Positions 37,092 through 55,823 of a stretch of DNA of 64,000 bases are shown here, piece after piece. Positions within the stretch are counted from its first letter, which is position 1, and the number at the start of each line of letters is the position of its first letter. The position numbers were made by a program, and so were the translations under genes. The stretch lies in assembly GCF_053078305.1 (NCBI RefSeq), contig NZ_CP166879.1; one strand, given 5' to 3'. Under the pieces are notes generated by a model. That model was not told the DNA's origin, ran no database searches, and worked only from the letters and a program-made list of their open reading frames with translations.

Positions 37092-37233
37092 CGACAACTC
37101 CTTATAAATCTTCACCTTCAGGCAGATCGTCAAAATAACTGATGATCATCATCATTGTTATCCGGGTTCTTACTCCGCCGAACAAGCGTATTGTGAGGAT
37201 ATCAAAATGACACCTTTAGTTAAGGATATCATC

Positions 37234-44241: not shown

Positions 44242-46137
<1,896 letters not shown>

Positions 46138-46165
46138 TAATCCTCCCGCCAGAAGAATAAAACAT

Positions 46166-46198
46166 AGCCCGGTATACAAGTGTATACCGGGCTTTTTT
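46166..46198. terminator. Bidirectional terminator between parE and the TonB-dependent receptor gene
   Basis: agcccggtatacaagtgtataccgggcttttttg. Confidence 0.6.
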
Positions 46199-46200
46199 GA

Positions 46201-48342
46201 TCAAAATTCCATTTTCACCGTGAATTGCACTTCACGCGGATCGCCAATCTGATTCCCCAGATTATTTGTGGCGATGGAAGAGGTGTAATACGTTTTATCA
46301 AACAGGTTTTTGACGTTTAATTGCAGTGTGACCGGATACTGCAATTTCATTTTGTATGCGGCGAAGGCATCGGCAACGAAATAGCCTGGCAGATAATAGT
46401 CAGCCCCATTGGTTGCCGAACGACGGCTTACGCCATGTCCACCACCGCCAAACGTCAGTGTGTTATTGCCAGGCATGTTATGAATGTCATAGGTCAGGAA
46501 TAGCGAACCGGTATGACGAGGAACATTCGGCAATGGTTTCCCTGCATAATCAGGATCTTCCAGAACCTTAGCATCGGTATAGCCGTAGCTGGCAATGATA
46601 TTAATGTTTTCAGTTAATGCTCCCGCAAGGTCGACTTCTACCCCTCTTGAACGAACGCGGCCTGCCGTTTTGGCGATGGTTTCATCACCAATACTTTCGG
46701 TATACAACACGTTACGTTTATGGATATCAAACAGCGCAATATCTGCGGTTATACCATCGAACAGCTCGAATTTTGCCCCGACTTCGTAAGCATTAGATGA
46801 TTCCGGTGGAAGATCTCCGATGTAGCTGGCAATTGACGATTGCGGCATAAATGTTTGCGAATAATTAGCAAATAAGGATACCGATGGCGTCAGTTTGTAG
46901 ACTAACCCCAGTTTGGGCGTCCATTGTTCATCGCGGCTGTCAGTATTGACATTAAAAGGACGGCCTTTACCCGCATACTGCGTGTAATACTGATAGCGGA
47001 TCCCGGCGACGGCAATCCAGTTATCGGTCAGATAGAGCGCATCCTGTGCATAAGCTGAGTAGCTCTCCTGTTTGATCGTCTGATCACTGTCCGACGCCGA
47101 AACCGTTGTGCATTTGCTGGTATTGCCATAAACGGGGTTGTAGATATTGAAATCTTTAGCGTTTTTACAGCGAATCATATCTGTGCGCAGAAGATCATAA
47201 TATTCATATGACACCCCACCCAGAATCTCATTATAGAACCCAGCAATATCAACATTCCCTTGCAGATCCGCACGAGTAGAATGCATACGCTGGGTAGATC
47301 CCTGAGTTGCATCAACACGCCGTGTCAGCGTTCCTGTCGTTGCATCATACGCGGTAACGCGAGCCTGATTGTCGCTGTATTTATCCTGGCTGTAGCTGTA
47401 ATCAAAGCGCGCTGTCCACTGGCTATTGAGATGATATTCTGCGTTGAGTTGCGCCAGATCGGACTGACCATCTGTAATATTAAACGGTTCGTCAAAACGT
47501 ATTTTTCGATCAACGTTTACGGGCTGTTTCGTCGTAAGGTCGAAAATCGTTCCACGATCGAACGGAGTTTTATAGTCCCGATGGGAATAGAGCATGGTTA
47601 CTGTTGCATTATCACCAAACCAGGTGAGTGACGGGGCAATAAATGTACTGCGCTCTTTACCGAAGTTTCGCCAGTAATCTTCATCCTGCACTTCCCCCGT
47701 CAGGCGGTATGCCAGCTGAGTGCCTTCAATGGGACCTGTGATATCAAGTTGCCCAGTGCCTCCGCCAAAACTGGAGGACGTGGCTGAGACAGAACCATGG
47801 AATGTTTTTTCCGGGCGCTTGGTCACGACGTTAATCAATCCACCAGGATCGAGAATGCCATACAGCGTGGAGGCCGGACCTTTTAGCACTTCCACACGTT
47901 CTGTGGCGGCGTTGAAACTGCGAGGAAGTACAGTTCGCAGGCCGTTGGTCATGATGGAGCCATCCCGGTTAGCACCAAACCCACGACGTACAAAGGCGTC
48001 CTGAGTTCCGCCTAATGTATTGGTCTGTACCACGTTACTGACGTTATAAAGCGCTTCATCCAGCGTCGTTGCATTCTGATTTTCCAGAACCTGATCGCTA
48101 ACCGTATTGACCACCTGCGGGATATCCAGCATCGGCATATCGGTTAATGTCGCCGTGGAAGTGCTCAGAGGTTGATAACCATCGGTCGCCTCAGTTGCGG
48201 TATTTGCATCCGCTGTAACAGTGATTGTTTCGCCATCTTTGGTCGTTGCAGTGTCGGTTGCATGAATCATTGGTGCTGCAAAGAGCAGTGAAAAGAGCGC
48301 CCGACCTTTGATTCCTGAGAATGAAGGTGTGAACTTAGCCAT
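46201..48342 (-). CDS. TonB-dependent outer-membrane receptor (siderophore/iron-complex type), possibly FitA-like
   Basis: 713-aa ORF with a signal peptide ending HA, a TonB-box-like ETITVTA, plug and barrel domains, and a C-terminal aromatic F. It is not present at this position in K-12. Confidence 0.8.
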   Translation of the reverse strand: MAKFTPSFSGIKGRALFSLLFAAPMIHATDTATTKDGETITVTADANTATEATDGYQPLSTSTATLTDMPMLDIPQVVNTVSDQVLENQNATTLDEALYNVSNVVQTNTLGGTQDAFVRRGFGANRDGSIMTNGLRTVLPRSFNAATERVEVLKGPASTLYGILDPGGLINVVTKRPEKTFHGSVSATSSSFGGGTGQLDITGPIEGTQLAYRLTGEVQDEDYWRNFGKERSTFIAPSLTWFGDNATVTMLYSHRDYKTPFDRGTIFDLTTKQPVNVDRKIRFDEPFNITDGQSDLAQLNAEYHLNSQWTARFDYSYSQDKYSDNQARVTAYDATTGTLTRRVDATQGSTQRMHSTRADLQGNVDIAGFYNEILGGVSYEYYDLLRTDMIRCKNAKDFNIYNPVYGNTSKCTTVSASDSDQTIKQESYSAYAQDALYLTDNWIAVAGIRYQYYTQYAGKGRPFNVNTDSRDEQWTPKLGLVYKLTPSVSLFANYSQTFMPQSSIASYIGDLPPESSNAYEVGAKFELFDGITADIALFDIHKRNVLYTESIGDETIAKTAGRVRSRGVEVDLAGALTENINIIASYGYTDAKVLEDPDYAGKPLPNVPRHTGSLFLTYDIHNMPGNNTLTFGGGGHGVSRRSATNGADYYLPGYFVADAFAAYKMKLQYPVTLQLNVKNLFDKTYYTSSIATNNLGNQIGDPREVQFTVKMEF

Positions 48343-48439
48343 TTAGTCTGTTATCCCAAAAACTCACGGATTGTCGTGAGTGAAAATTGTTTCTTGTTGC
48401 TCACTAAGCACTATCCGTTTGTTATTTCACCATCGGATA

Positions 48440-48510
48440 TGTAATTGAGAATCATTCAACCATGCGGTAATGTAGTAGTAAATGAGAAATAACAAAAAAT
48501 TGCTACATGT
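48440..48510. promoter_or_regulatory. AT-rich divergent promoter region with Fur-box-like sequences
   Basis: taattgagaatcattcaa matches 11 of 13 positions of the Fur core aatgataatcatt. A second weaker copy, aatgagaaataacaaa, is also present. Confidence 0.45.
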
Positions 48511-48715
48511 GTTTTTTTGAGAGGTTAATGCAATTCAATTGATGGTAATTTATTAATATTTAATGATTTTATTTTTATCTTTAAAAATATTTCACCTGTT
48601 ATTTACCTTGTTTTTGTATGGCTTTTAACTTCTTGACTACTACATTTTGTGGCGTCAAACTCTCAAAAGAGAATGAGTTTTATTTTTGTTTGTCTTTGAT
48701 TAAGTTGGCGTACAC

Positions 48716-49525
48716 GTGGCACATAACGCAAAAGGGCAGGGGCTGATCCTCGACAATGTTTCTGCCGGGTATCACAAGAAAATCATTGTTGATGGTGTTT
48801 CTTTCTCCGTTCCCACAGAAAAAATGACCGTTCTGGTTGGGGCAAACGGCTGTGGAAAGTCGACGTTGCTCAGCACCATTGCACGTATCTTGCAACCCAT
48901 GGGCGGCTCAATATTGCTGGATGGTAAAGCGATTCACGAGCAACCAACGAAAGCGTTATCCCGTAGACTTGGGATCTTGCCGCAGTCGCCATTATTGCCG
49001 GAGGGCTTAACCGTTTATGAACTGGTGTCGCGTGGGCGTTTTCCCTGGCAAAATTTCATACGTCAATGGAGCGACGCCGACGAGCAGGCGGTAGAAGAGG
49101 CCCTGAAATTAACCGGTACGCAGGAGTTTGCTCATTTACCTGTTGAAAAACTCTCTGGTGGGCAGCGCCAGCGTTGCTGGATTGCGATGGTGTTGGCGCA
49201 AAAGACGCCTTATATCCTACTGGATGAACCCACAACCTGGCTTGATTTACGTTATCAGGTTGAAATTCTTGAGTTATTACATGATTTAACGCGTCATCAC
49301 GGGCGTACAGTCGTCGTGGTGTTGCATGATCTGAATTTTGCCGTCAATTATGGTGATACGTTGATATTTTTACGCCAGGGGAAAGTGGTGCGTGTGTTGA
49401 ATGAGGGGGAGCATTGCACGCCTGAGCTGGTAAAAGCTGTCTTTGACGTTGATGTTCACGCATCAATAAATACTCTGACGGGAAAGCCGTTCTTCATGCC
49501 GTTTCGTGGTGTAGAAAAAGTATGA
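48716..49525 (+). CDS. ABC transporter ATP-binding protein (FepC/FecE-type)
   Basis: 269 aa with Walker A GANGCGKST, the signature LSGGQRQR and Walker B ILLDEPT. An ATGA overlap joins it to the next gene. Confidence 0.85.
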   Translation: MAHNAKGQGLILDNVSAGYHKKIIVDGVSFSVPTEKMTVLVGANGCGKSTLLSTIARILQPMGGSILLDGKAIHEQPTKALSRRLGILPQSPLLPEGLTVYELVSRGRFPWQNFIRQWSDADEQAVEEALKLTGTQEFAHLPVEKLSGGQRQRCWIAMVLAQKTPYILLDEPTTWLDLRYQVEILELLHDLTRHHGRTVVVVLHDLNFAVNYGDTLIFLRQGKVVRVLNEGEHCTPELVKAVFDVDVHASINTLTGKPFFMPFRGVEKV

Positions 49526-50505
49526 TGCGCACAGGGCTGGTTACTGTAATTTTCCTCACCTTACTGCTGGTGGGATGCGTGGTATATCCAGGGATTGGTG
49601 CCCGATTTATTGCACCACAAACGGTGTTGCAGGCATTTCTTCATTTTGATCCGCAAAACTTCGATCACAGCGTAATTGTAAGACTCCGTTTGCCGCGTTT
49701 AGCGGCAGCATTGCTTACCGGTGCTTCTCTTGGTGTTGCCGGTGCTTTGTTGCAGGCTGTCATTCGTAACCCATTGGGGGAGCCACATATTTTAGGCTTA
49801 AATGCCGGAGCCGCTCTTGCTGTCGTTGCCGCCAGTGCGCTTGGACTGGCCTTTCCGGCTGGACGCCCACTGCTGGCATCTACGGGGGGCGCGTTATTGT
49901 TCCTGTTGATATTGCTGCTTTCCTCCGCAGGGCGTTCAGGGTTAACGCCAATGAAAGTTACTTTATGCGGCGTGGCGCTATCGGCGTTCGTGTCCTCAAT
50001 AACGGCTGCAATCCTGATTCTTGACGAACAAACACTGCTGGCGATGCGGACATGGCTAGCAGGTGATTTAGCGGGGCAGGATTGGGTGACGCTGGGTACG
50101 TCCGTCTGGTTTTCTCTGGGGGGATTTGTGTTAGCCATTTACCTTGCGCCCTCTCTTAACATGTTGGCACTGGGTGATCGCATGGCGCAGGGGCTGGGCG
50201 TCTCGGTACTCCGCACGCGAACATTCACCCTGCTTGCGATCGCGTTGCTCTGTGGCGCAGCCGTATCGATTGCTGGCCCCATTGGTTTTGTCGGCCTGCT
50301 AGTACCGCAGATTGTCCGGCGTCTGGTATCAGCGGATCTGCGCGTTCTGCTCCCTCTTTCAGCTTGTGTCGGCGCGCTTTTGTTATTACTGGCAGATATT
50401 ATTGCTCGGACGCTCTTCACGCCCCATGAGTTAGCGACCGGTGTCATGACGGCGTTAGTTGGTGCGCCTGTTTTTGTCATTATGGCGACGAGGATGTTCA
50501 AATGA
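49522..50505 (+). CDS. FecCD-family ABC permease
   Basis: 327-aa polytopic membrane protein, FecCD/BtuC fold. Confidence 0.8.
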   Translation: MMRTGLVTVIFLTLLLVGCVVYPGIGARFIAPQTVLQAFLHFDPQNFDHSVIVRLRLPRLAAALLTGASLGVAGALLQAVIRNPLGEPHILGLNAGAALAVVAASALGLAFPAGRPLLASTGGALLFLLILLLSSAGRSGLTPMKVTLCGVALSAFVSSITAAILILDEQTLLAMRTWLAGDLAGQDWVTLGTSVWFSLGGFVLAIYLAPSLNMLALGDRMAQGLGVSVLRTRTFTLLAIALLCGAAVSIAGPIGFVGLLVPQIVRRLVSADLRVLLPLSACVGALLLLLADIIARTLFTPHELATGVMTALVGAPVFVIMATRMFK

Positions 50506-51551
50506 GTCGGATAATGAACGTCGGGCTACGCCCACTACGTGTTGGTAAGTTTTCGACACTGGTACGCCCTAAAAATCTGGTGTTGCTTGGTGGGCTGTTT
50601 CTGTTTGCGGTTGGAATACTGATATTCGGTCTGATGCATGGTTCTTTTTCTGTCCCGGCATCGGAAGTAGGACGAGCGTTGTTTGCTCCAGAAAACGTAA
50701 GCACAGACGCACGTTATATTGTGCAGGATATTCGCTTGCCGAGAGTCATCATGGCATTGCTATGCGGAGCCATGTTAGGTATGGCGGGGGCCGCGATGCA
50801 ATCCATTGCGCGTAACGGCCTTGCCGATCCTGGTTTAATCGGCGTCAAAGAAGGATGTAGCGTGGCGGTGCTGTGGCTGATTTTCCAGTTTCCAATGCTG
50901 GGAATGTTCTGGCGTCCAGTGGCTGGTCTTGCTGGTGGCTTGTTGGTGGCTTTAATCGTGATTTTTTGTGCACGCGATATTTCCCGCCCGCGATTTGTTC
51001 TGATTGGTATTGGTGTTTCCTGGTTTTTCGCCGCCGGTATCGGTGTATTTATGACCACTGCAGATGTTCGAGATGTACAAACTGCATTGATGTGGTTATC
51101 GGGAAGCCTGCATGCAGCTAACTGGATGTTAGTCGGTATTTCAGCCTGTTGGATGTTGCCAGCCACTCTTTTATTGCTGTTCACCGCCAGGACGGCGGAT
51201 ATCGCTCTGCTTGGTCATCAGGTTGCAACCGGGTTAGGGGTGAATAGTTCTCGTCTGGCGTTGTTACGTGTCGCCGCACCAATAATCCTGACAGCCGTCT
51301 GCGTTTCGTGTGTTGGTAACATCGGTTTTGTCGGATTGATAGCACCCCATATATCACGTTTTATTCTACGTGGCGGGCAGACGACATTACTGCTGGGGAG
51401 CGCCGTATCGGGGGCGTTGTTAGTCATCCTGGCGGATAGCATTGGTCGTTTGGCTTTTTTGCCTTTGCAACTGCCTGCCGGAATCATTATTTCATTGATT
51501 GGTGGACCATTCTTTTTGCTACTGCTCTGGCAGTGCAGGAACAGTTTTTAA
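50502..51551 (+). CDS. FecCD-family ABC permease (second subunit)
   Basis: 349-aa polytopic membrane protein. It overlaps the previous gene by 4 nt. Confidence 0.8.
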   Translation: MSRIMNVGLRPLRVGKFSTLVRPKNLVLLGGLFLFAVGILIFGLMHGSFSVPASEVGRALFAPENVSTDARYIVQDIRLPRVIMALLCGAMLGMAGAAMQSIARNGLADPGLIGVKEGCSVAVLWLIFQFPMLGMFWRPVAGLAGGLLVALIVIFCARDISRPRFVLIGIGVSWFFAAGIGVFMTTADVRDVQTALMWLSGSLHAANWMLVGISACWMLPATLLLLFTARTADIALLGHQVATGLGVNSSRLALLRVAAPIILTAVCVSCVGNIGFVGLIAPHISRFILRGGQTTLLLGSAVSGALLVILADSIGRLAFLPLQLPAGIIISLIGGPFFLLLLWQCRNSF

Positions 51552-51561
51552 TGGGAGTTAT

Positions 51562-52509
51562 ATGCGTTTATTTTTTTCTCTGCTGATACTGTTGTCATTC
51601 TTTGCCCGCGCGACAGAACCTGTTCAGGTCTTTACTGATGATTTAGGGCGCAAAGTCACTGTTCCTGCTCATCCAAAGAGAATTGTCTCTTTACACGATC
51701 TTGATATCACTATTCCTCTGATTGAGCTCGGTGTACCTCCTGTCGCCAGCCACGGGCGAACTCGGCCTGACGGTAGCCATTTCATTCGATCAGGCGCGTT
51801 ATTGACAGGTGTCGACTTTGATAATTCATCGATCGCTTTTATTGGCACCGCTGATATTGATATTGAAGCGATTGTGGCGGCAAAGCCTGACCTGATTATC
51901 ACAGAACCGACCCGTAATACGCCCATTGAACAACTGGAAAAAATTGCGCCCACGGTGAGCATTGATCATCTCAAAGGAGGCGCGCCAGAAATCTACCGCA
52001 AGCTGGCAGAACTGACAGGAACGCAGTCGCAGCTGGCGATACTTGAACGCCGCTATCAGGCACAAATCAATGCGCTGAAGGCGACGCTGGACAGCCAAAA
52101 AATAACGGTATCGGTGATTCAGGCAAATCAGGGAAAAATTAATGTGATGCATAGCTATCATTCGCTGGGGCGGGTATTACGCGATGCTGGTTTTCGCTTT
52201 CCGCCGCTGATTGAGAGCATTCCTGAAGGTGGGCGAATGGATGTGAGCGCGGAGCGTTTACCTGAACTGGATGCCGATTTTGTTTTTGCAACCTGGCGCG
52301 GTGACACCGGTGGTAAACCTCAGGATGAGCTGGCAGCAATGGAAAAAGTCATGCCGGGATGGTGTCAGTTTCTGACTGCCTGTCGTTCCGGGCGTTATGT
52401 GCTGATTTCTCGTGAAGAGGCAATTTCTAACTCCTTTGCATCTCTGGGGCTGATGGCTGCGCAGATACAATCACAAATTGCGGGGCGACCTTTACCGGAG
52501 GCCAAATGA
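51562..52509 (+). CDS. Periplasmic substrate-binding protein (class III, FhuD/FecB-like)
   Basis: 315 aa from MRLFFSLLILLSFFARA (signal peptide), with an RBS GGGAG upstream. The ORF track gives a longer alternative starting at 51499. Confidence 0.75.
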   Translation: MRLFFSLLILLSFFARATEPVQVFTDDLGRKVTVPAHPKRIVSLHDLDITIPLIELGVPPVASHGRTRPDGSHFIRSGALLTGVDFDNSSIAFIGTADIDIEAIVAAKPDLIITEPTRNTPIEQLEKIAPTVSIDHLKGGAPEIYRKLAELTGTQSQLAILERRYQAQINALKATLDSQKITVSVIQANQGKINVMHSYHSLGRVLRDAGFRFPPLIESIPEGGRMDVSAERLPELDADFVFATWRGDTGGKPQDELAAMEKVMPGWCQFLTACRSGRYVLISREEAISNSFASLGLMAAQIQSQIAGRPLPEAK

Positions 52510-53393
52510 TTCAGAAAGACAAAACGCGGGTTGATATTTATGGTGAGCGTTTTCGCACTCGCGCGAGTCAGTTAACGCCTGGGTTAAGAGCTGTCGCCAG
52601 CTATATTAATGAGCATCGTGAAGTGGTACTCGAGCAAACGGCGATGGAAATTGCGGCCACGTTGAACACTTCCGATGCCACAGTTATCAGGGCTATACAG
52701 GCCCTGGGGTTTGCCGGGCTGCGTGATCTGAAACGCACTCTGGAACAGTGGCTTGGTCCAGCCCTTAGTTCCAGCGAAAAGATGTCTACGACGGTGAGTA
52801 ACTTGACGAGCGATGTTAACACCGCAATCGACTTTGTTCTTGAAGGGCATTTGTATACCTGTAATGTCCTGTCAGAGCCTGAAAACCGCCACGCGCTTGC
52901 GCAAGCGGTAGCGTTGTTGGTACAGGCACGGCAAGTCGCAATTTTTGGCATTGGCGCTTCGGGTATTCTGGCGGACTATACCGCACGACTATTCAACCGC
53001 ATAGGTTTGCCAGCCACGGCACTAAACCGTACGGGTATTGGCCTTGCCGAGCAACTGATCGCGCTTCAACGTGGCGATGTTCTGATCATGATGGCGCAAA
53101 AATCTGCGCACCGGGAAGGGCTGACAACGCTGCGTGAAGCGAGACGGCTGGGGATCCCTGTTATTTTGCTGACAAACGCGCTGGATTCACGTTTTAGCAA
53201 AGACGCCAGTATCGTGATTCATGTTCCGCGCGGGGATGAAAAGGGGAAAACGCCACTACATGGTACGGTATTGTTGTGCCTGGAAATGATTGTCTGGTCG
53301 GTGGCTTCCGCGGTGCCGCAGCGTGCGGTTAAAACCATTAAGCGAATTAACGATTTCCATCGGGGGCTGAAAACGGGAAGAAAGAATGGCTAA
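52506..53393 (+). CDS. RpiR-family transcriptional regulator (HTH_6 plus SIS domain)
   Basis: 295-aa ORF with an N-terminal HTH and a C-terminal SIS (sugar isomerase) domain motif GIGASG. Its start overlaps the stop of the binding-protein gene. Confidence 0.75.
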   Translation: MIQKDKTRVDIYGERFRTRASQLTPGLRAVASYINEHREVVLEQTAMEIAATLNTSDATVIRAIQALGFAGLRDLKRTLEQWLGPALSSSEKMSTTVSNLTSDVNTAIDFVLEGHLYTCNVLSEPENRHALAQAVALLVQARQVAIFGIGASGILADYTARLFNRIGLPATALNRTGIGLAEQLIALQRGDVLIMMAQKSAHREGLTTLREARRLGIPVILLTNALDSRFSKDASIVIHVPRGDEKGKTPLHGTVLLCLEMIVWSVASAVPQRAVKTIKRINDFHRGLKTGRKNG

Positions 53394-53437
53394 TCTGACC
53401 TGAGGCCGGTAGCAACACCGGCCTCTTTTCAGGAATG

Positions 53438-53752
53438 TTAAATCCCCGGTTGCAGAATACGGATATTCATCTCCAGCACGTCGCCTTTTACGGCTTCGCT
53501 GTACGCCTTCATGTGCGGGGTTTGCAGATGCGCTTCAAGGTGCGCGATGCTTTCCCACTGCTCAATCATCACGATAGAGTCCGGTGCCATAGACTGGAAA
53601 CTCACGCCAGCAGCGCAATCCACCATTGGCGCATAGCCGTGGCAACCTTCTTCTTTCAGTACGGTTGGAACGATTTTAGCAAACTGATCCAATACCGCCT
53701 GACGGTGATGTTGACCAGGACGAGTACGGATTTCTGCGATTACGGTAAGCAT
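53438..53752 (-). CDS. ygiN: Quinol monooxygenase YgiN
   Basis: 104-aa ORF MLTVIAEIRTRPGQHHRQAVLDQF..., ABM domain. Confidence 0.9.
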   Translation of the reverse strand: MLTVIAEIRTRPGQHHRQAVLDQFAKIVPTVLKEEGCHGYAPMVDCAAGVSFQSMAPDSIVMIEQWESIAHLEAHLQTPHMKAYSEAVKGDVLEMNIRILQPGI

Positions 53753-53782
53753 GGTTAACTCCTTCTAAAGCCTGAGCTCTAG

Positions 53783-54364
53783 TTAACCAAAAATTTCCAC
53801 AAGATGCTTGCGATATTCTTCAGTATAGCGGGGAACATCAGGCATTTTTATCACGTCATTAGCGATAAATGTCGGCAGCGGTTCCATGCCAAGGAATTGG
53901 TTTGCTTTATGGAACGGCAGATACACACCGTCGACGCCAACGCCGTGGAAGAATTGATCTTTTTCGGTGAAGGCTTCCATTGGTGCGTTCCAGGTCAGAG
54001 AAAGCATATATTTTTTGCCCTGTACCAGGCCGCCGGAACCGTATTTTTTCGACGGATCTTTGCGGGTACGACCATCGCTGGCATACAGCGTCCCGTGACC
54101 TTCGGTGAATACATCATCAATGTATTTTTTCACTGTCCACGGCGCGCCCATCCACCAGCCTGGCATCTGCCAGATCACCACATCAGCCCAGAGAAAGTTT
54201 TGTACTTCCGCTTTGACATCGTAGTCGCTGTCGGCGCGAACGATGCGAACATCATGCCCGAGGTCGCGCAGTGTGCCATCCGCGACTTCGGTCAGGGTGT
54301 CGTTCAGTTGACCATTGGAGTGGGCGAATTTTTTCGCGCCGTTGATAATCAGGATGTTGCTCAT
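53783..54364 (-). CDS. mdaB: NADPH:quinone oxidoreductase MdaB
   Basis: 193-aa ORF MSNILIINGAKKFAHSNGQLN, flavodoxin-like. Confidence 0.93.
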   Translation of the reverse strand: MSNILIINGAKKFAHSNGQLNDTLTEVADGTLRDLGHDVRIVRADSDYDVKAEVQNFLWADVVIWQMPGWWMGAPWTVKKYIDDVFTEGHGTLYASDGRTRKDPSKKYGSGGLVQGKKYMLSLTWNAPMEAFTEKDQFFHGVGVDGVYLPFHKANQFLGMEPLPTFIANDVIKMPDVPRYTEEYRKHLVEIFG

Positions 54365-54473
54365 TTTTTAACCTCAAGGTGAGACGTTTGCCGACTATAG
54401 TACGTCACAGAGCGGTACGGTGAAATTAGCAAAATGTGCAAAGTCTTTTGCGAATTTAGCAAAAGTCTTACCC

Positions 54474-55823
54474 TTACCAGCTTACCTTCGCCTCAAATCC
54501 ACCTTGTTCCGCATTCCCAAACTCAACATTCATGCCATGCAGCTTGGCGATTCGCTGGACAATCGATAGCCCAAGTCCACTGCCGGTAGCGGTTTGTCCG
54601 GGTGGGCGATAGAAGCGTTCGCCAATTCGCGCTAGTGCCTCTGGCGTCACACCGGGGCCGTTATCCCTCACGATGAAATTATCGGCATTCAGCGTGACGT
54701 CTACCACGCTGCCCTGTGGACTGTAGCGCACGGCGTTATCCAGCAAATTTCGCACCAACAAACTTAGCAATAGCGGTTGCCCGGTGCGTTTGATGCTGTG
54801 GGCATTGAGTGTCAGTCGCACGTCAATTTTCGCCTGCTGCGCCGTGTGGTAAATATCCATCACCGACGATTGCAGGAGATCTTCAAGCGGGATCTCCGCG
54901 ACGTCCTGAAGGTTATCCAGTGAGTCCAGCCGCGATAGCGTGAGCAGTTGATCAACCAGACGAGTAGCGCGATCGATCCCGTAATGTAATTGAAGCAGTG
55001 CTTTTTTCCGCGCCTGCGGATCATCGTCAGAGAGCTGCGCAACTTCGGTTTGCACTTTCAGCGCCGTTAACGGGCTACGAAGTTCGTGAGCTGCGTCGGA
55101 GGTAAAGCGTCGTTCACGAACCATCATCGCATGTGTGCGGGCGAACAGTTGATTTAGCGACTCAACCAGTGGTCGCACTTCGCTGGGTACGCCAGTCGCG
55201 TTTAGTGGTTTTTCCGAGTCAGGGTCACGCATACGTAGTGCCAGCGCCAGTTTGTTCAGCGGCGCGAGTTCACGACCCAGTAGTACCATCATGATGATTA
55301 ACATAATCGGCAGTGCGACCAACCACGGGATCAATTGCCCGGCAACAATCGCCAGCGCCATGTCTTCACGGTATTCCCATTCCTGACCAACAACGATGCG
55401 ATATTTGCCATCAGGTGAGGTCATCCAGACAAAACGCCATTGATCTTTATCGCCCACCAGTTGCCCGTCAGCAAAACCTTCCCGTTGATAGCTATAGGGA
55501 ATATCTTCTCCGTTATCGCCATCGTTAAGGACCATTCTGCCGTCGTGGGTAAAGATGGCAAAGGTCAGCGCATCGTCATCAACATGACCGTGTTTTAATT
55601 TATTTGGCGTCTGTGCCATGCGATCCGCCGCGTTGATTTCGTTGAGATCGAGCGTACTTAACCGCTTGGCAAACAGCATCAGTTGGGTGTCGAACAACTC
55701 ATCGACGTTATCCGTTGTTTGTTTCCAGGCGACAAAGCTGGAAAGCAGCCAGGTCACCGAGGCCAGAATTAAAAAGATTAGCGTCAGCCTGACGCGCAGA
55801 CTAAGACGTTGGGTAAATTTCAT
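54474..55823 (-). CDS. qseC: Quorum-sensing sensor histidine kinase QseC
   Basis: 449-aa ORF with two transmembrane segments, an H-box HELRSPL and a HATPase domain. Confidence 0.93.

Follow-up and report, generated by a model that had tools for sequence, protein, structure and literature searches.

The fit iron-uptake system of Escherichia coli was reportedly described by Ouyang and Isaacson in Infect Immun in 2006 and in Open Microbiol J in 2008. Here, this system is compared with a cluster of six genes at positions 46201-53393 of a 64,000-nucleotide stretch of contig NZ_CP166879.1 (assembly GCF_053078305.1; the whole stretch is referred to below as the window). In the published system, fitA encodes the receptor, fitB the ATPase, fitC and fitD the permeases, fitE the binding protein and fitR the regulator (PMC2593036). 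FitR is an auto-repressor, and Fur also represses fit: overexpression of FitR gave approximately 3-fold repression of both promoters, knockout of fitR derepressed them, complementation brought repression back, and the purified protein specifically shifted the fitA-fitB spacer when tested by electrophoretic mobility shift assay (EMSA) (PMC2593036). FitR repression was similar in iron-rich and iron-poor medium and did not depend on Fur (PMC2593036). Since a fitR mutant could still be induced by iron limitation (PMC2593036), Fur and FitR act independently of each other.

The segment in the window is the published E. coli fit locus and not merely a look-alike, because the published primers map to it gene for gene, its FitE matches the structures 3BE5 and 3BE6, and gene content and order agree. 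Sixteen of the 17 published fit primers matched the window with 0-2 mismatches, each inside its namesake gene, the exception being the cloning primer fitR2_F with 4 mismatches, while control primers for fepA and gst tested on the window gave no match. The quantitative PCR (qPCR) primers for fitA map to 47522-47598 (0 mismatches), and the primers for fitB to 48873-48959 (0 mismatches), those for fitC to 50141-50236 (1-2 mismatches) and those for fitD to 51206-51265 (0 mismatches); the fitE primers have 1 mismatch apiece and the fitR qPCR primers 0. By primer mapping, the fragment used for the published EMSA and promoter work spans 48364-48722 of the window. FitE aligned with PDB 3BE5/3BE6 at an E value of 2e-195 over residues 19-315, and later papers, PMC10553834 among them, call this structure (3BE6) Ec-FitE and cite Shi et al. 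2009 for it. Compared with the published fit of strain i484, gene order, roles, primer sites and FitE sequence are the same, the present strain differing by a few single-nucleotide polymorphisms, among them two changes that compensate each other in the hairpin of the fitA leader. An initial annotation of this DNA had noted a resemblance to the fit locus, and the primers and the FitE structure bear this out. It had also called the combination of Fur control with a sugar-phosphate-type sensor unusual; this combination has been in print since 2006-2008. The finding is correct and not new, as the locus and its dual control by Fur and FitR are already known; the additions made here are the conserved promoter blocks, a candidate FitR operator, an altered FitR pocket and the apparent tie of a wider regulator clade to iron transport.

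The list of open reading frames (ORFs) and the domain search place the six genes between parE on one side and ygiN on the other, in agreement with the initial annotation:

46201-48342, minus strand: fitA, siderophore-type TonB-dependent receptor of the outer membrane (713 aa; Plug and barrel)
48716-49525, plus strand: fitB, ABC transporter ATPase, with an ABC_tran domain
49522-50505, plus strand: fitC, FecCD-family permease (PF01032, 295 bits)
50514-51551, plus strand: fitD, FecCD-family permease (PF01032, 263 bits); RefSeq start, with the frame open from 50502
51562-52509, plus strand: fitE, periplasmic siderophore-type binding protein (Peripla_BP_2)
52506-53393, plus strand: fitR, RpiR/MurR-family repressor (HTH_6 and SIS)

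The two FecCD permeases, the ABC ATPase and the Peripla_BP_2 protein make up the set of a FecCD/BtuCD-type ABC importer. The fitA gene is divergent from fitBCDE-fitR, and the 373-bp AT-rich promoter spacer between them, in which GC drops to 0.35, is the sole part of the cluster below the range of 0.44-0.57 found over the gene bodies. The locus region is 100% identical to that of E. coli TUM13936. For comparison, 80 FitR-encoding loci from approximately 20 named genera of Enterobacterales were collected, 77 of them with a receptor-proximal spacer. FitR synteny was kept in all 80 of these genome loci, the orthologues always adjoining a TonB-dependent receptor, and in the window the start of fitR shares an ATGA with the stop of fitE. 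The RpiR/SIS gene had been proposed as the cognate regulator of the transport genes; the published EMSA and genetics, the synteny and the fitE/fitR overlap confirm that it is part of the system and not a gene unrelated to the transport operon.

We estimate a probability of roughly 0.85 that fit is a chromosomal accessory siderophore-type TonB-dependent uptake system repressed independently by Fur-Fe2+ and FitR, with FitR sites of the type bound by the Pseudomonas regulator RccR, Fur boxes and ligand release as its predicted elements. FitA would bring a ferric chelate through the outer membrane, after which FitE would ferry it across the periplasm and FitC/FitD, together with the FitB ATPase, would import it. 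As published, the fitA and fitBCDE-fitR units are each repressed by Fur-Fe2+ and, separately, by the product of the operon's last gene, FitR. The latter is predicted to bind TGTAGT/ACTACA half-sites overlapping the -35-like hexamer of each promoter (at 48471-48482 and 48633-48644), perhaps also TGTAAT at 48440, and Fur would bind GAATGA-type boxes at or just past the putative -10 elements. Release of FitR would require a ligand, probably no ordinary phosphosugar, for which the imported chelate or its product is the most economical guess; a chelate-released FitR would add induction by the substrate to the iron control of uptake.

Four elements of the divergent promoter carry this proposal:

48440-48461: block 1, TGTAATTGA(G/T)AATCATTCAA, a Fur-box-like core after a TGTAAT half-site, the core being present in 77/77 loci
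48471-48482: block 2, TGTAGTAGTAAA (TTTACTACTACA on the fitA strand), exact in 77/77 loci and overlapping a -35-like TTTACT
48633-48644, plus strand: inverted second copy, TTGACTACTACA, facing fitB, with a -35-like TTGACT and an ACTACA half-site (inverted repeat I2/I7)
48665-48687, plus strand: Fur-box-like AAAGAGAATGAGTTTTATT, just 3' of the putative fitB -10 and conserved in the aligned full-type loci

Blocks 1 and 2 are spaced by 6-7 nt, the spacer and the flanks being variable, and on the fitA strand block 1 overlaps a possible TGnTTGAAT -10 element. The inverted copy facing fitB was present in 14/14 full-operon loci scanned (the E. coli window and 13 others). After 17 nt it is followed by a -10-like CAAACT or CAAAAT and then by AAAGAGAATGAGTTTTATT, and the layout on the fitA strand is parallel, with TTTACTACTACA, 17 nt ending in TGn, and TTGAAT-GATTCTCAATTACA. 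Within the 64-kb window, the block 2 11-mer was found just in both promoter copies (the second at 48634), plus one chance match with 1 mismatch. The blocks are kept even where the receptor is merely 36-39% identical to FitA, that is in Serratia, Pantoea and some Erwinia, whose loci encode a FitR 67-73% identical and have no ABC genes. The same promoter blocks were seen in Serratia plymuthica (locus L068, 7445-10870), where receptor and FitR alone stand between lacZY and TIR/AAA-type genes, and on plasmid pA of Pantoea allii (locus L080, 6238-9538), which holds receptor, Peripla_BP_2 protein and FitR.

The half-sites of RccR have been defined experimentally as TGTAGT/ACTACA (PMC5489143), and block 2 and the inverted copy carry exactly these hexamers. 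Because RccR is the best match of FitR and its half-sites equal the block 2 hexamers, the TGTAGT/ACTACA boxes are probably the FitR operator and are treated here as candidates for it. In 80 metagenome loci encoding distant FitR relatives, the hexamers occurred at 1.53/kb within 350 nt of the regulator compared to 0.15/kb elsewhere, and clear palindromes were found in some of these distant loci, such as TGTAGT-ATAT-ACTACA. The half-sites of the fit promoter are approximately 160 bp apart, as opposed to 3 or 16 bp in the RccR-type operator. As RccR and MurR are tetramers (PMC11014249), FitR could conceivably bridge half-sites at this distance by a loop over both promoters. In block 1, a Fur site is probably joined to an additional TGTAAT half-site, the two being inseparable by sequence.

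The promoter had been described in the initial annotation as carrying Fur-box-like sequences. Of this description, the Fur control itself stands, as it is published, and both Fur-like sites sit in blocks conserved across genera, but the match to the consensus is no better than that of shuffled sequence. The 19-bp Fur consensus was matched at 12/19 positions at 48441-48459 (13/19 in orthologues with T at the variable position) and at 13/19 at 48669-48687 (15/19 by count in Dryocola, GATAATGATACTTATTACT). A consensus match as proof of Fur control was rejected, since 12-13/19 equals the shuffles, and the published genetics was relied on instead. The best matches in the window (14-15/19) lie outside fit, at 55290-55308 and 37135-37162, one of them within the reading frame of qseC and the other in a run of GATGAT/CATCAT; both are probably due to chance and illustrate the weakness of the consensus test.

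Several points weigh against the arrangement proposed above. A score of at least 13/19 to the Fur consensus was reached by 26% of spacer shuffles, so that the Fur-like matches are no better than chance, and loci with only receptor and FitR usually hold one TGTAGT box instead of two. The -10 candidates (TTGAAT, CAAACT) are weak, the conserved blocks could sit in leaders instead of promoters, and the division into FitR-bound and Fur-bound blocks is read from sequence. Finally, FitR repression amounts to just 2-5 fold in LB (PMC2593036), which puts its physiological weight in doubt.

FitR carries PF01418 (HTH_6, 39.8 bits) and PF01380 (SIS, 52.1 bits). Among solved proteins its best match in both sequence and fold is Pseudomonas RccR (8K3B, 8JU9), and the fold also matches NanR and MurR; the AlphaFold model of FitR, used for the fold search only, was of moderate confidence, with a pLDDT of 66.7 overall and of 75-89 in the SIS domain. 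In RccR, the phosphate of KDPG (2-keto-3-deoxy-6-phosphogluconate) is held by S139, S183, S185 and S188, and the four Ser/Thr residues are conserved in NanR, MurR and RccR (PMC11014249). In the HMMER alignment, these positions correspond to S152, A197, K199 and H202 of FitR, meaning that one of the four is kept. A multiple alignment further placed MAQKSAHRE of FitR at the loop that reads [IV][ST/A]x[ST]G[RS][TK] in YebK (HexR), MurR, AlsR and MurQ, and the QKSAHRE loop was invariant across 12 aligned orthologues bar one Ala/Pro position. By these alignments, the pocket of FitR does not appear to be a standard phosphosugar pocket, and FitR probably responds to something other than an ordinary phosphosugar.

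The constructs used in the published work may have made a shorter FitR protein. The forward primer for the repression plasmid pBAD-fitR1 anneals at 52563-52580, which is 57 nt into fitR as annotated, and purified FitR was published as 28 kDa, compared to approximately 32 kDa estimated for 295 aa. The long frame is favoured by residues 8-19 of FitR (RVDxYGERFRxR), which aligned orthologues conserve.

A search of 1.84 billion representatives returned 634 FitR relatives at E<=1e-10. Nearly all of the full-length relatives (25-51% identity) are without the canonical loop and have LAY-GRxYxE instead, with PRG...LHG in common with FitR. Gene neighbourhoods were sampled in 65 metagenome loci with neighbours, whose regulators are 38-55% identical to a clade representative that is itself approximately 40% identical to FitR; the counts are lower bounds since many of the contigs are short. 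A siderophore-type TonB-dependent receptor, a representative of which passes TIGR01783, was found in at least 15 of the 65 loci and directly adjoined the regulator in 12, while Peripla_BP_2 occurred in at least 6, FecCD in at least 5 and FetB-like UPF0014 in at least 4. Taken together, iron-transport neighbours were present in at least 22 of the loci, or in 34 once an OFeT_1-like family with weak matches is counted in. A literature search for a link between RpiR regulators and iron found none in the papers searched. We propose, tentatively and with the odds rather against it, that a large RpiR/SIS clade has gone unrecognised, in which no member but FitR is characterised, and that its members have an altered cradle (LAY-GRxYxE or QKSAHRE, plus shared PRG...LHG motifs), RccR-type operators, iron or siderophore transport targets and a ligand other than a phosphosugar, for instance the imported chelate, that would give substrate induction atop Fur.

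FitA carries PF07715 (Plug) and PF00593 (22-strand barrel), a signal peptide and a TonB-box-like ETITVTA near its N-terminus, and it passes TIGR01783, the model for TonB-dependent siderophore receptors, with 373.6 bits against a cutoff of 223.5. Its scores against the NCBIfam equivalogs for receptors of known specificity, FoxA, Fiu, FecA and FauA among them, were all far under cutoff (238 against 884 for NF010651, 230 against 803 for FhuA, 195 against 904 for the ferrioxamine receptor NF010650 and 163 against 666 for FhuE), and the receptor did not cluster with any receptor of known specificity. Its nearest solved relatives, FetA, FoxA and FhuA, are roughly equidistant (E values of approximately 1e-44 to 1e-49). 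FitB matched FecE, FepC and FhuC best, all sub-cutoff. The closest other solved relatives of FitE, matched at E values of 1e-15 or weaker, bind siderophores of the hydroxamate, catecholate or mixed type. The substrate specificity of Fit cannot be read from this homology. For Klebsiella pneumoniae ST258, one study reports that iron depletion induces fitA and states that the substrate is not enterobactin (PMC5907654), and a literature search for an identified Fit substrate found none in the papers searched.

The initial annotation had suggested that Fit imports a glycosylated or sugar-containing siderophore, in which case FitR would sense a derived phosphosugar through a classical SIS pocket. 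Such a sensor would fit the HTH_6 and SIS architecture of FitR, its canonical first SIS loop (GIGASG) and the ligands of its solved relatives, which are phosphorylated sugars or sugar acids (KDPG for RccR, ManNAc-6P for NanR, MurNAc-6P or GlcNAc-6P for MurR). It is difficult to reconcile, however, with A197, K199 and H202 in place of three of the four phosphate-holding Ser/Thr residues, with the lack of the SxSGxT loop in the whole FitR clade, and with a conserved cluster that holds no glycosidase, kinase or sugar-catabolic gene, the sugar genes of Enterobacter being a separate, non-conserved island. The suggestion thus found no support, and we regard it as unlikely. Those Enterobacter genes (AraC/DUF2264/LacY-like/GH88) were also considered as a hint of a sugar ligand and rejected, as they are absent from most fit loci.

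FitR might instead not be substrate-specific at all, and couple receptor expression to a general signal, be it of metabolism or of iron status, as part of a broad RpiR-like iron-transport clade. The FitR orthologues of 67-73% identity that keep the promoter blocks beside a receptor of only 36-39% identity, without ABC genes, would agree with this, as would the variety of iron-transport neighbours (siderophore-type receptors, FecCD, binding proteins, FetB-like proteins) in at least 22 of the 65 metagenome loci. Nevertheless, published FitR repression is about equal at high and low iron and Fur-independent (PMC2593036), dedicated local regulators normally sense a local substrate, and the survey of contexts is based on short metagenome contigs, which makes this explanation rather doubtful. 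It is very unlikely that the cargo of Fit is no iron chelate at all, for example a different metallophore or a cofactor, with only a regulatory link to iron. B12 and other metallophores, too, are taken up through TonB-dependent receptors paired with FecCD-type importers, and some of the top PDB matches of FitA are deposited as 'metal-pseudopaline receptor CntO', yet some chains with this label are identical in sequence to FoxA entries. Moreover, FitA passes the siderophore-receptor subfamily model, all nearest solved relatives of FitE bind siderophores, and both Fur control and iron-limited induction are published (PMC2593036, PMC5907654). The reading preferred here is the siderophore-type uptake system under separate repression by Fur and FitR.

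As the initial annotation had stated, the cluster is absent from K-12 at this site: in MG1655, 47 bp separate parE and ygiN, and homology between the window and K-12 breaks at the parE stop and picks up again at the ygiN stop. Carriage, defined as the whole 7.2 kb at >=97% identity, was surveyed in 5426 complete E. coli genomes. The full cluster was found in 1870 of them and a K-12-like empty junction in 3268, while the other 288 (by subtraction) gave no single match to either state. O157:H7 and ABU 83972 are among the carriers, and the site is empty in O104:H4 and K-12. In published surveys, fitA occurs mainly in phylogroup B2 isolates, adherent-invasive isolates being among these carriers, and is absent from the commensals HS, IAI1 and SE11 (PMC9409007). 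The same parE-ygiN site is occupied in E. whittamii, E. ruysiae, another cryptic Escherichia, Enterobacter, Lelliottia, Silvania and Huaxiibacter.

The description of the cluster as inserted found no support, as the same site is used in other genera and the borders show no signs of mobility: no integrase ORF and no flanking direct or inverted repeats were seen at the cluster borders, and no tRNA gene was found within 40-60 kb of the window. Because fit occupies the same site in cryptic Escherichia and in Enterobacter, and because its borders are without mobility signatures, it may already have stood between parE and ygiN in the ancestor of Escherichia and been lost in the K-12 lineage; on these comparisons of sequence, loss would be at least as likely as gain. 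The following features border the cluster:

44245-46137, plus strand: parE, flanking gene
46166-46193: hairpin terminator with a 12-bp stem and a 3' T-run on the plus strand, between the convergent parE and fitA; terminator scan positive on both strands
53402-53429, plus strand: fitR terminator, GAGGCCGG-N8-CCGGCCTC then TTTT, identified by inspection of the sequence; it falls between the stops of fitR (53393) and ygiN (53438)
53438-53752, minus strand: ygiN, flanking gene

The 47-bp spacer of K-12 has its own, different hairpin, which the hairpin at 46166-46193 replaces. Additional DNA was seen at the fitR-ygiN border in other genomes. In an Enterobacter locus (L008, 10852-16216), fitR and ygiN are separated by an extra island of approximately 5.5 kb, which encodes an AraC regulator, a DUF2264 protein, a LacY-like permease and a GH88-like hydrolase, and similar fitR-ygiN spacing was found in approximately 15 further Enterobacter, Lelliottia, Silvania and Huaxiibacter loci. 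The Enterobacter island has the look of a sugar-utilisation module of its own that occupies the same variable site. In E. ruysiae (L005), approximately 8.5 kb of extra DNA extend from fitR (ending at about 10885) to ygiN (19419). Elsewhere in the window, the qseC-mdaB gap measures approximately 109 bp (54365-54473) and has no ygiZ, a gene that K-12 carries there (b3027; L002, 3880-4212).

The leader of fitA contains a further conserved structure:

48363-48382, minus strand: fitA leader hairpin, CTCACG-N6-CGTGAG then U5 on the fitA strand, approximately 20 nt upstream of the start codon

In strain i484 and in two further Escherichia loci (L003 and L005), a compensatory change gives CTCGCG..CGCGAG. 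Across the comparison loci (L003-L079), a hairpin of 5-8 bp lies approximately 15-20 nt before the receptor start, often with a U-run after it, its sequence varying from genus to genus with the pairing kept, and the upstream leader motifs AACGGATAG and GGGCAATGA are conserved in most aligned genera. The mean stability z-score was just -0.62 (60-nt leaders from 74 loci), and thermodynamics thus give no support; the case for the hairpin is made by its conserved position and the compensatory changes. An Rfam scan of 46000-53800 returned sub-threshold chance matches only, with no riboswitch or small RNA (sRNA) to explain the conserved leader. The hairpin could act in attenuation or stabilisation, or be the target of an sRNA.

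Taken by itself, the locus is a known accessory iron-uptake system and offers nothing new. With the Fhu, Fep and Fec systems of K-12, Fit has in common the plan of a TonB-dependent receptor, a Peripla_BP_2 protein, FecCD permeases, an ATPase and Fur control, although no Fit protein reaches any equivalog cutoff. Fit also differs in having a dedicated RpiR-type repressor, whereas Fhu and Fep are without a dedicated regulator and Fec has FecIR. Among regulators, the KDPG-sensing repressor RccR (and HexR) offers the closest comparison: RccR is the best match of FitR, both autoregulate, and TGTAGT/ACTACA is found in the fit promoter. The identity between the two is nonetheless approximately 22%, FitR is without three of the four phosphate-binding serines, and RccR targets genes of carbon metabolism, not of transport.

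The handles that such comparisons provide are a short candidate operator at both promoters, a predicted non-phosphosugar pocket and a clade apparently tied to iron-transport genes. If the proposal for this clade is true, an RpiR subfamily would constitute a third route to substrate-responsive siderophore uptake, beside the AraC-type and ECF-sigma systems. PchR, YbtA and AlcR are AraC-type, substrate-responsive siderophore regulators layered on Fur. The logic proposed for Fit would be the same, in that a cytoplasmic regulator makes Fur-controlled uptake responsive to the chelate; PchR, YbtA and AlcR, however, are activators of the AraC family, whereas FitR is a repressor of the RpiR/SIS type.

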